A stretch of 5,892 nt of DNA, taken from a virus (taxonomy: Duplodnaviria > Heunggongvirae > Uroviricota > Caudoviricetes). The stretch lies in IMG/VR virus record IMGVR_UViG_2541047163_000021; one strand, given 5' to 3'. The notes under the pieces are model-generated. The model was not told where the DNA came from and did no database searches. It worked only from the letters and a program-made list of their open reading frames with translations. The first letter of the stretch is position 1. Every line of letters starts with the position of its first letter. Positions 4,344 to 5,892 of this stretch are shown one piece after another. A program made the translations under genes and the position numbers.

Positions 4344-5435
4344 ATGCGTGATTACGCAAAAGTTTCTCCGCGATTCTGGCTGGGAGAAACGGGGAGAGAA
4401 CTTAGAAAGGCGGGTGCAGAAGCGCAAGTTGTTGCTTTTTACCTGATGACATCCCCTCACGCAAATATGCTGGGTTTGTATTACCTGCCAGTTTTATACC
4501 TTGCTCATGAAACCGGGCTTGGTCTGGAAGGGGCTTCAAAGGGGCTTAAAAGGGCTGTTGAAGCTGGTTTTTGTAGCTATGACCATGATGCAGAGATGGT
4601 CTGGGTCCATGAAATGGCAGCCTGGCAGGTTGGGGAAACGTTGAAGCCTGGCGATAACCGTTGTGCAGGTGTCAGGAATGAGTATGCATCATTACCTGAA
4701 AACGCTTTTCTGTCAGTGTTTTACGACAGATATAAAACGGATTTCCATCTGGATGTGAGGCGGAATAATAGCCGAAATTCGGTAAGGGGCTTCGAAGGGG
4801 CTTTTAAGGGGCTTCGAAGCCAAGAACAGGAACAGGAGCAGGAGAAAGAACAGGAACAGGACAAAAACACTATGGTTCATGGCAAAAAAAACACCACGAA
4901 CCAGGCAGGGGATGTTCAGACCGTCAATCCTGGTCAGCCAGCAGGCACGACACCGGAAGCCGATTCGGGCGCTGTGCAGCAGGTGATGACCGCAGGGTCG
5001 GAGCAATCACACCAACTGCAGCAGCCTGAAGCCGATTCCGCCATTCAGCGGGAAGCCGATCGGGTAGTCCCGGAAAGCACCGGGCAGTCTGTGGGACGAG
5101 TGGATTATCCGGATGTGTTCGAACAGGTCTGGCGGGAATACCCGTTGCGTGCTGGGGCAAACCCGAAGAAATCCGCTTTCAGTGCCTGGAAGGCCAGATT
5201 GCGCGAGGGGGGGCCACCAGAGACCATGCTGGATGGTGTGAGGCGTTACGCGAGATACCTGGCGGCGACCGGGAAAGCGGGAACGGAATTTGTTCAGCGA
5301 GCGACGACGTTTTTTGGGCCGGACCGGAATTTTGAAAACCCCTGGTTGCTCCCGGTAAGCGGCACGAACAACCAGCGTTGTGTGAATCATATTTCTGAAC
5401 CGGATACCGAAATTCCGCCGGGATTCAGGGGGTGA
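4344..5435 (+). CDS. Phage replication initiation protein (O-like / replisome-organizer type), 363 aa from the preferred start
   Basis: ATG at 4344 preceded by GAGG (4335-4338) with 5-nt spacer; the track start at 4233 has no RBS. Immediately upstream of a DnaC-like gene (stop TGA 5433-5435, next ATG 5442). A low-complexity EQEQEQEKEQEQ linker separates N- and C-terminal domains, and iteron-like repeats lie inside the gene. Family call is from synteny and architecture, not from a recognised motif. Confidence 0.7.
   Translation: MRDYAKVSPRFWLGETGRELRKAGAEAQVVAFYLMTSPHANMLGLYYLPVLYLAHETGLGLEGASKGLKRAVEAGFCSYDHDAEMVWVHEMAAWQVGETLKPGDNRCAGVRNEYASLPENAFLSVFYDRYKTDFHLDVRRNNSRNSVRGFEGAFKGLRSQEQEQEQEKEQEQDKNTMVHGKKNTTNQAGDVQTVNPGQPAGTTPEADSGAVQQVMTAGSEQSHQLQQPEADSAIQREADRVVPESTGQSVGRVDYPDVFEQVWREYPLRAGANPKKSAFSAWKARLREGGPPETMLDGVRRYARYLAATGKAGTEFVQRATTFFGPDRNFENPWLLPVSGTNNQRCVNHISEPDTEIPPGFRG
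4529..4561. repeat. Iteron-like direct repeats, cluster 1: three 11-bp units AGGGGCTTCAA / AGGGGCTTAAA / AGGGCTGTTGA
   Basis: Tandem 11-bp period (about one helical turn) read directly from the sequence, inside the replication gene. Confidence 0.5.
4784..4865. repeat. Iteron-like direct repeats, cluster 2 (3 x AAGGGGCTT[CG/TT/CG], 4784-4816) followed by a GAACAG-type hexamer tandem tract (4824-4865); candidate origin core
   Basis: AAGGGGCTTCG / AAGGGGCTTTT / AAGGGGCTTCG at 11-bp period, then gaacag gaacag gagcag gagaaa gaacag gaacag gacaaa, which encodes the EQ-rich linker. Confidence 0.5.
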
Positions 5436-5441
5436 TGTGGC

Positions 5442-5892
5442 ATGAAAAACATTGCGGCAGCCGGGGTTCTTGAACGTATTCGCAGACTTGCACCACAGGC
5501 GTCGGTTCCACCGTACCGGACGGTGGAGGAGTGGCGGGAATGGCAACTTGCTGAAGGACGAAAACGCAGCGAGGAGATTAACCGCCAGAATCACCAGTTG
5601 CGGGTTGAAAAAATCCTGAACCGTGCGGGCATCCAGCCGCTTCACAGGAAGTGCTCATTCGGGAACTACCGGGTGCAGAACGACGGTCAGCGCCATGCTC
5701 TGAGCCAGGCGAAATCCATTGCCGATGAATTGATGACCGGATGTACAAACTTCGTGTTCAGCGGTAAACCTGGTACCGGTAAAAATCACCTGGCAGCAGC
5801 GATTGGCAATCGGCTGATGGCGAAGGGGAGAAGCGTGATTATCGTCACCGTGTCCGATGTCATGAGCGTGTTGCATGACGGCTACGACAACG
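5442..5892 (+). CDS. DnaC-like helicase loader (AAA+ ATPase, YdaV-like), N-terminal 150 aa; 3' end beyond the window
   Basis: ATG at 5442 with AGGGGG about 10 nt upstream, 6 nt after the replication-gene stop. Translation contains the Walker A motif FSGKPGTGKNHLAAAIGNRLMAKGRSVIIVTVSDVM, which closely resembles E. coli DnaC as I recall it. Absent from the ORF track because it has no stop inside the window. Confidence 0.9.
   Translation, partial: MKNIAAAGVLERIRRLAPQASVPPYRTVEEWREWQLAEGRKRSEEINRQNHQLRVEKILNRAGIQPLHRKCSFGNYRVQNDGQRHALSQAKSIADELMTGCTNFVFSGKPGTGKNHLAAAIGNRLMAKGRSVIIVTVSDVMSVLHDGYDN

Follow-up and report, generated by a model that had tools for sequence, protein, structure and literature searches.

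Where does replication of a λ-like prophage of Escherichia coli O157:H7 begin, and which protein reads the short repeats that lie inside its initiator gene? These questions are raised by a 5,892-bp stretch of Caudoviricetes DNA (IMG/VR record IMGVR_UViG_2541047163_000021, in full length called the window here), which shares 98.6% identity with a lambdoid E. coli O157:H7 prophage (e.g. EDL933, 1,252,865-1,258,773). The window carries the gene for a 363-residue replication initiator, and within that gene are two clusters, blocks 1 and 2, of the 9-base motif AAGGGGCTT, the second of which runs into a hexamer tract. A first-pass annotation, made from the sequence alone, proposed that these elements are a candidate replication origin. 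Three observations support that proposal: synonymous positions within the repeats are conserved, block 2 flips its orientation among relatives, and the motif switches when the N-terminal domain of the initiator is a different one. We put at about 0.72 the probability that the AAGGGGCTT clusters are iterons read by the winged-helix domain of their own gene's product, and that with the adjacent DNA they form the prophage origin. The positions of the elements are collected in Table 1.

How secure are the repeats themselves? They were detected with Tandem Repeats Finder (TRF), and the chance level was taken from 200 dinucleotide-preserving shuffles. The exact 9-base motif is present five times in the window, always on the plus strand (starting at 4528, 4539, 4784, 4795 and 4806), against a shuffle mean of 0.06 copies; at least five copies were found in 0/200 shuffles, and a chance origin is excluded. 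Within each block the copies keep a strict 11-bp spacing, and TRF detects two arrays of period 11, one of 2.5 copies (93% matches) at 4528-4554 and one of 3.3 copies at 4784-4819. Start to start the blocks are 256 bp apart, in agreement with the earlier estimate of about 255 bp. The first-pass annotation also counted three 11-mers in each block, at 4529-4561 and 4784-4816. For block 2 the count stands, as its three exact units are followed by a partial one; for block 1 it holds for two units, the third, AAAGGGCTG (about 4549-4558), being degenerate and matching at only 7/9 bases. The partial unit of block 2, AAGCC (4817-4821), is conserved and leads straight into the (GAACAG)n tract, which had been correctly described as coding for an EQ-rich linker; TRF gives it as a period-6 GAACAG array at 4824-4861, or alternatively as a period-18 array at 4830-4869. 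Block 2 encodes amino acids 147-159, in a disordered linker, and read in frame the two blocks give peptide echoes in the window, EGASKGL from block 1 and EGAFKGL from block 2. The 11-bp period is out of frame, however, with successive units falling in three frames, so that a peptide repeat alone cannot yield it. A G-quadruplex in block 2 was also considered and, on sequence grounds alone, rejected: it would need four runs of GGGG, and the block has three in the window and two to three, on one strand or the other, in relatives.

Are the repeats maintained as DNA, or only as protein? Our sample comprised 80 viral-contig loci and 80 genomic loci that encode homologs of the N-terminal domain at 50-100% amino acid identity. 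The hosts of the genomic loci include Citrobacter, Raoultella, Proteus, Morganella, Rahnella, Acinetobacter, many Burkholderiales, Xanthomonadales and others, with G+C contents of 35-69%. Distinct homologous loci, from Enterobacterales, Acinetobacter, Burkholderiales and Xanthomonadales, numbered about 120-140, and for the codon test 35 representatives with <90% amino acid identity were used. Across block 1 (codons 62-68) the representatives use GAA (32/32), GGG (34/34), GCT (28/35), AAG (34/34), GGG (29/34) and CTT (32/35), with codon entropy of ~0 at the GAA, GGG, AAG, GGG and CTT positions. In the rest of the domain the codons for conserved Gly, Leu, Thr, Ala and Pro residues have near maximal entropy (Gly 1.4-1.96 of 2 bits), and in block 1 itself the Ser codon, which forms the 2-nt spacer between the units, is free to vary (1.73 bits). 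Over 119 distinct loci, positions 1-7 of each of the two block 1 units show about 98% invariance. The third unit has a weak consensus in relatives, AAGnnnCAT, and codon 73, at the GAAGC half-site, is GAA in 27/29 representatives. The first-pass annotation would have taken its proposal as refuted if homologs kept the peptide while synonymous changes destroyed the repeat in the DNA. What we see is the reverse, in that the synonymous sites are frozen and block 2 flips, and by these codon comparisons the repeats are shown to be under purifying selection as DNA.

The flips of block 2 deserve a closer description. In nearly all relatives block 2 is found at the same place (gene nucleotides about 428-476) and in the same 11-bp phase, with 2-3 units. 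Its units are all AAGGGGCTT, with a GGG centre, at 24 distinct loci, all AAGCCCCTT, with a CCC centre, at 80, and mixed at 9. A flip changes the encoded peptide, which is ..EGAFKGLRS.. here and ..EAPSKPLRS.. in most relatives, and keeps the DNA motif. The arms of the motif, AAG/CTT, are palindromic, and only the G/C centre is asymmetric; since the unit junctions CTTCGAAG are also palindromic, we infer that inversion of the block would keep both length and reading frame. The position of block 2 in a disordered segment of the protein accounts for the tolerance of such inversions. Exchange between the blocks may also occur. In several lineages a unit variant found in one block recurs in the other: the Klebsiella/Citrobacter type, for instance, has CTT followed by CTA in block 1 and again in block 2, and one pair of loci has AGGGCCT in each block. 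These shared variants suggest concerted evolution or gene conversion between the clusters.

Is the motif peculiar to the initiator gene? Among the 80 genomic loci the two blocks, 10 kb in sum, contain 261 copies of the 7-mer core and the other 258 kb contain 49, which gives 26.1 versus 0.19 per kb, a difference of ~137-fold. In the complete 61.5-kb genome of phage PhiR5_2, whose initiator gene has 77% nucleotide identity with the one studied here, 11-bp-phased motif pairs are found in that gene alone. We note that PhiR5_2 also has inverted AGCCCCT / AGGGGCT pairs, 13 bp apart, outside the initiator gene (20302-20321 and 20785-20804). These look like hairpins, possibly terminators, rather than phased iterons.

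What part of the initiator would recognize the motif? The AlphaFold2 model of residues 1-160 (predicted local distance difference test, pLDDT, 86; predicted template modelling score, pTM, 0.80) has the winged-helix order H1-S1-H2-H3-S2-S3, with a helix at 25-36, a strand at 45-47, helices at 50-57 and 60-73, and strands at 77-80 and 85-88, followed by two more helices; residues 144-160 are disordered in the model (pLDDT <50). When the model was compared with BFVD by Foldseek, a 'Replisome organizer' was matched with E 1.2e-4 and other initiator models with E 5e-3 to 0.1, a likeness at the level of fold only. Further matches among the viral models are a 'Replication initiator protein', Lin1244/Lin1753-like proteins and DUF1376 proteins. 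Block 1 lies in the codons of helix 60-73 (H3), which, judged by the topology of the model, probably corresponds to the usual recognition helix of such domains.

A natural domain swap provides what we consider the strongest evidence on this point. Phages vB_EcoS-689R5 and Evi share the C-terminal half of the initiator (92% nucleotide identity beyond the tract) and, upstream of it, the CII/YdaT-like regulator (92% amino acid identity to that of the window), and they too have two clusters and a tract. Their N-terminal domain, in contrast, is unrelated to the window's (BLASTP E 1.1), and their repeat unit is a different one, GTCACG. In 689R5 (initiator 1026-2096) it is present four times at 1152-1190 and five times at 1413-1463, in clusters with a period of 10-11 that are about 261 bp apart, and the second cluster is followed directly by the ACAGATAAAGAT tract. 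A further difference from the window is that LygF, and no DnaC-like gene, is found downstream of the 689R5 initiator. As far as sequence comparison can tell, then, the repeat tracks the N-terminal domain and not the host, the regulators or the C-terminal domain, which speaks against recognition of the motif by a host factor or by a regulator encoded nearby. We regard it as very likely that the repeats are functional DNA sites specific to the type of N-terminal domain. As a separate matter, three GAAGCCGATTC-like 14-mers (4953, 5025 and 5049; span 4953-5062) encode PEADS-type peptide repeats in a disordered linker and resemble the iteron with 1-2 mismatches; they sit in the module that 689R5 also has and so do not track the N-terminal domain.

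Might another protein, or no protein at all, be responsible for the repeats? The reader might be a conserved host DNA-binding protein, or another phage protein, rather than the initiator, and the persistence of the same 9-mer from Proteus (35% G+C) to Burkholderiales (about 69% G+C) could point to such a host partner. We think this quite improbable, as the motif becomes GTCACG when only the N-terminal domain differs, with the host species, the regulator and the C-terminal domain the same, and as the immunity and regulator genes vary among phages that keep the motif. Nor is the motif a DnaA box: DnaA-box-like matches number 7, where 12.8 are expected, and none of them is near the repeats. A role in the messenger RNA (mRNA), in which block 1 AAGGGGCUU pairs with block 2 AAGCCCCUU and so controls translation or stability, seems very improbable. 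About 70% of relatives have the two blocks as reverse complements of each other, so that a long-range duplex of roughly 20 bp is possible there, but in the window and in 23 other distinct loci the blocks are co-oriented and hence unable to pair. The existence of mixed-orientation arrays and the natural flips of block 2 also speak against pairing, an Rfam search gave no match, and the strict 11-bp phasing fits the faces of B-DNA and not RNA helices. The least probable of the explanations is that the repeats merely reflect a recurring peptide (EGAxKGL), or slippage, and have no function as DNA. The in-frame echoes in the window invite such a reading; against it are the invariant synonymous sites, the out-of-frame period, and the flips, which abolish the peptide echo in most relatives. 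A repeat that is purely protein-driven is excluded by the frozen synonymous sites and the block 2 flips together.

If the initiator does read the repeats, do they also serve as the origin? The N-terminal domain might bind them for autoregulation, as a roadblock or at an operator, or for handcuffing, with the true origin elsewhere. Acinetobacter-type loci are instructive here, as they have 1-2 extra motif copies, 11 bp apart, just before the initiator start codon (at -37/-26 or -34/-23), where an operator might be expected. The window lacks this third cluster, which may be an operator for autoregulation, and the want of an unambiguous unwinding element beside the repeats likewise favors regulation. 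On the other hand, the complete genome of PhiR5_2 has no other phased cluster able to be the real origin, and the layout, in which a repeat tract comes after sites at the interdomain linker, is that of proven origins (PMC7466680, PMC6316719). We therefore hold it unlikely that the true origin is elsewhere, and note that autoregulation and origin function are mutually compatible and may coexist.

Several points weigh against our preferred reading, that the repeats are iterons of the prophage origin. There is no clearly A/T-rich unwinding element beside the repeats, and the encoded amino acids can account for the A/T-rich stretch that precedes block 2. Retention of one motif over very divergent hosts would also fit a conserved host factor, and intragenic sites could serve autoregulation instead of, or besides, initiation. 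Covariation between the variants of block 1 and block 2 is weak (2x2 table 46/11/39/23, odds ratio about 2.5, confounded by shared ancestry). Finally, a protein search of PLSDB found no small plasmid that uses the initiator gene as its replicon; the 6 records returned are all large or misassembled chromosomal or prophage pieces, and are uninformative.

Where, then, might the DNA of such an origin open? One candidate is the hexamer tract, which adjoins block 2 directly in essentially all relatives and is mostly 7-34 codons long. It has a strong excess of A over T, but its G+C content is 45-50% here and about 67% in high-GC hosts, and at 45-50% G+C it does not qualify as a classical A/T-rich unwinding element. 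Its codons in relatives are without exception of the (E/D)Q type. A role at the DNA level is inseparable from that of a flexible linker. The tract is also a breakpoint of module exchange, at which BLAST matches to other phages begin or end. Analogous 12-bp tandem tracts follow the iterons in unrelated initiators, and from these comparisons a short-period, A-rich tract 3' of the iterons is seen to recur in enterobacterial initiators that share the C-terminal module. A second candidate is the stretch at 4700-4775, the position of the largest A/T excess (+13%) within 700 bp on either side (mean of 135 distinct loci). The residues encoded there, F, Y, D and K, could explain the excess, which is thus not independent evidence.

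The imperfect inverted repeat that follows the tract is more difficult to place. It is stronger in PhiR5_2 (DNA free energy, dG, -14.3, z -4.2) and in 689R5, with compensatory changes of TTC/GAA to TCC/GGA, and the copy at 4873-4903 has a terminator-like score on the minus strand. A conserved hairpin after the tract was sought across the family, and no enrichment over control windows was found, the inverted repeat being limited to some enterobacterial subtypes. The inverted repeat may or may not belong to the origin.

How might initiation proceed at the proposed origin? Several initiator molecules would bind the 11-bp-phased sites of both clusters, on one face of the helix, and the clusters, about 255 bp apart, would perhaps be bridged by a loop. 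The complex would then destabilize nearby DNA, the candidates being the A/T-rich stretch just before block 2 and the A-rich (GAACAG)n tract just after it, and the initiator's C-terminal domain, with its DnaT-like tail, would recruit the host DnaB via the DnaC-like loader encoded next downstream. We infer all four of the elements of this scheme, namely initiator binding, looping, the unwinding site and the firing of the origin. By analogy the layout agrees with that of known origins inside initiator genes, and it is on the whole probable that the two-block repeats constitute the replication origin.

The recruiting half of the scheme draws on the C-terminal end of the initiator, VNHISEPDTEIPPGFRG (5382-5432), which is near-identical to the tail of DnaT (PDB 6aep, 2ru8, 9zbt). 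The IPxGFRG end is retained in related phage initiators that have other N-terminal domains. The likeness is a local one: the DnaT equivalog NF002770 scores 17.8 bits against a cut-off of 201, and the match is confined to the last 24 residues of the initiator. The downstream gene matches PRK12377 (E 2e-89) and DnaC PRK07952 (E 6e-49) of NCBIfam, as well as phrog_50 and Pfam IstB_IS21. As for the initiator as a whole, phrog_1701, a 'DnaD-like helicase loader', matches the 363-residue protein end to end, and phrog_3729 and phrog_270, both labelled 'replication initiation protein', match its C-terminal half. No Pfam family matches the protein at E <= 0.01, and Phage_rep_O is thus unmatched.

One further idea, which we offer tentatively and think more doubtful than the origin assignment itself, is that the origin is self-referential. 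Block 1 would be written in the codons of the third helix, the usual DNA-recognition helix, of the very domain that reads the iterons, so that any change in a site would also alter the reader. Such coupling between site and reader might account for the fixation of a single 9-mer across phages of Gamma- and Betaproteobacteria, at 35-69% G+C, in contrast to the fast-diverging iterons of the λ-type O proteins. The linker cluster would meanwhile be free to invert as a block via the CTTCGAAG palindromic junctions, and looping would let the two clusters cooperate. On this idea the (SAR)n tract, with its trinucleotide period, might be a single-strand landing pad for the DnaT-like C-terminal domain or for the DnaC-like loader.

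How does the proposed origin compare with known systems? The iterons of λ are about 19 bp long. Four of them are found in λ, and six in 933W and P27, where, as in λ and the Shiga toxin (Stx) phages in general, the origin consists of iterons and an A/T-rich tract in the middle of gene O (PMC7466680). The first-pass annotation saw a likeness to λ, and for the layout the likeness holds: the repeats are inside the initiator gene, at the junction of an N-terminal DNA-binding and a C-terminal recruiting domain, a repetitive, A-rich tract of low complexity comes after them, and the N-terminal domain and its iterons are exchanged as one module (PMC7466680). The annotation also set the repeats apart from the four 19-bp iterons of λ, again rightly, as there are 9-bp cores at 11-bp spacing in two clusters about 255 bp apart, where λ has one cluster of longer iterons. 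Furthermore, one of the clusters lies inside the coding region of the DNA-binding domain, the orientation of the units is free, the tract is not A/T-rich, and the partner is a DnaC-like loader, not λ P. The initiator itself has no detectable sequence relationship to O.

Another parallel is the Bacillus phage SPP1, whose replisome organizer gp38 (G38P) binds the direct repeats of oriL inside gene 38, beside an A/T-rich unwinding element (PMC6316719). Shared features are direct repeats inside the gene of the origin-binding protein, a replisome-organizer-type N-terminal fold (PMC6316719), and a loader gene that comes next. SPP1 differs in having a second origin, oriR, as well as the A/T-rich unwinding element, whereas PhiR5_2 is without a second cluster; the sequence similarity is not significant, and the hosts here are Proteobacteria. 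Among enterobacterial phages, the initiators of the mEp460/SfV type and the 'O' of Stx1_14040 have a related C-terminal module, and the order of N-terminal domain, iterons, 12-bp tandem tract and C-terminal domain is like that of the window, but they have a single cluster of 21-24-bp repeats in place of two clusters of 11-bp repeats. The iterons of plasmids are typically 17-22 bp long, of one orientation and outside rep, with DnaA boxes and an A/T-rich region alongside. Compared with those of iteron plasmids with a winged-helix Rep, the core here is shorter (9 bp), variable in orientation and inside the gene, with no DnaA boxes nearby. The likeness to E. coli DnaT (primosomal protein I) and the DnaD family is limited to the tail, and DnaT differs in acting at forks without sequence specificity.

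An iteron origin inside an initiator gene is a well-known kind of element. What sets the present case apart is the 9-bp pseudo-palindromic core with 11-bp phasing, the arrangement in two clusters about 255 bp apart, of which one is in the codons of a putative recognition helix, the free orientation of the linker cluster, the use of one site sequence across two classes of Proteobacteria, and the association with a DnaT-tailed, DnaC-partnered initiator unrelated to O. In the open-access literature we found no iterons or origin described for this initiator family, though an older description is possible; a search with the motif string gave unrelated matches only, and searches on Eru phages and on Rac oriJ/ydaU turned up no account of these repeats. 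The Shigella/Stx1 phage 75/02 encodes a 76.5%-identical, full-length relative of the initiator. Phage 75/02 is the representative of the Eru4 replication type, and the papers on Eru types state that there is no knowledge of the replication proteins of Eru phages (PMC8044961, PMC8951638). In O157:H7, in 75/02, and in many prophages of Klebsiella, Acinetobacter and Burkholderiales, the protein is labelled 'hypothetical', 'DNA-binding' or 'O'. The repeats mark the probable binding sites and origin of this widespread, unstudied initiator family. A candidate origin with so simple a site (AAG-SSS-CTT, 11-bp phasing) opens the replication of Stx and non-Stx prophages to experiment, and the site pattern is a sequence signature by which origins in this initiator family can be annotated. 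The repeats are also an unusually clean natural overlap of protein and DNA codes, with synonymous sites frozen in a folded helix and flips in a disordered linker.

Table 1. Positions of the repeat elements, the initiator and its domains, and neighbouring genes in the window
Feature	Position	Strand	Basis
Replication initiator (replisome-organizer) gene, 363 amino acids, harbours all repeat elements	4344..5435	+	Open reading frame list, PHROG matches
N-terminal winged-helix domain (amino acids 1-143), presumed origin-binding	4344..4772	+	
Block 1: two exact AAGGGGCTT units 11 bp apart; codons 62-68 (EGASKGL), helix 60-73	4528..4547	+	
Degenerate third unit AAAGGGCTG and GAAGC half-site, end of block 1	4549..4564	+	Sequence
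Stretch with the gene's highest A/T content (38-43% G+C), directly before block 2; candidate unwinding region	4700..4775		Composition profile
Block 2: exact AAGGGGCTT units at 4784, 4795, 4806 and partial AAGCC	4784..4821	+	TRF, counts
(GAACAG)n-type tract, encodes (EQ)n linker	4822..4869	+	TRF; AT skew +0.76
Imperfect inverted repeat TGGTTCATGG-A8-CCACGAACCA, directly after the tract	4873..4903		
C-terminal helical domain with DnaT-like tail; presumed helicase or loader contact	5100..5435	+	
DnaC-like helicase loader gene, 5' part, extends beyond the window	5442..5892	+	NCBIfam, phrog_50, Pfam
cI-like helix-turn-helix repressor	2412-2813	minus	
YdaS-like Cro	2922-3194		
YdaT/CII-like protein	3178-3603		

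The order of genes in the window is a RelE/RelB pair, a cI-like helix-turn-helix repressor, a YdaS-like Cro, a YdaT/CII-like protein, the initiator and the DnaC-like loader. The bounds of the initiator gene agree with the RefSeq annotation of the EDL933 prophage, in which the coding sequence is WP_001205823.1, labelled 'hypothetical protein'. The first pair, of the RelE/ParE-RelB toxin-antitoxin kind, is at 1906-2384 on the minus strand, between dicB/ydfA-like genes and the cI-like repressor. Upstream of the initiator, at 3566-4301, two long open reading frames (ORFs) overlap in antisense, and each is backed by a different library. The plus-strand ORF (3617-4126) matches phrog_8304 (E 6e-120) and no NCBIfam family, and the minus-strand ORF (3810-4265), which is the one annotated by RefSeq, has no PHROG match but does match the NCBIfam 'ECs1072 family phage-associated protein' (E 2e-30). 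Either phrog_8304 or the ECs1072 family may have been built on a shadow ORF.

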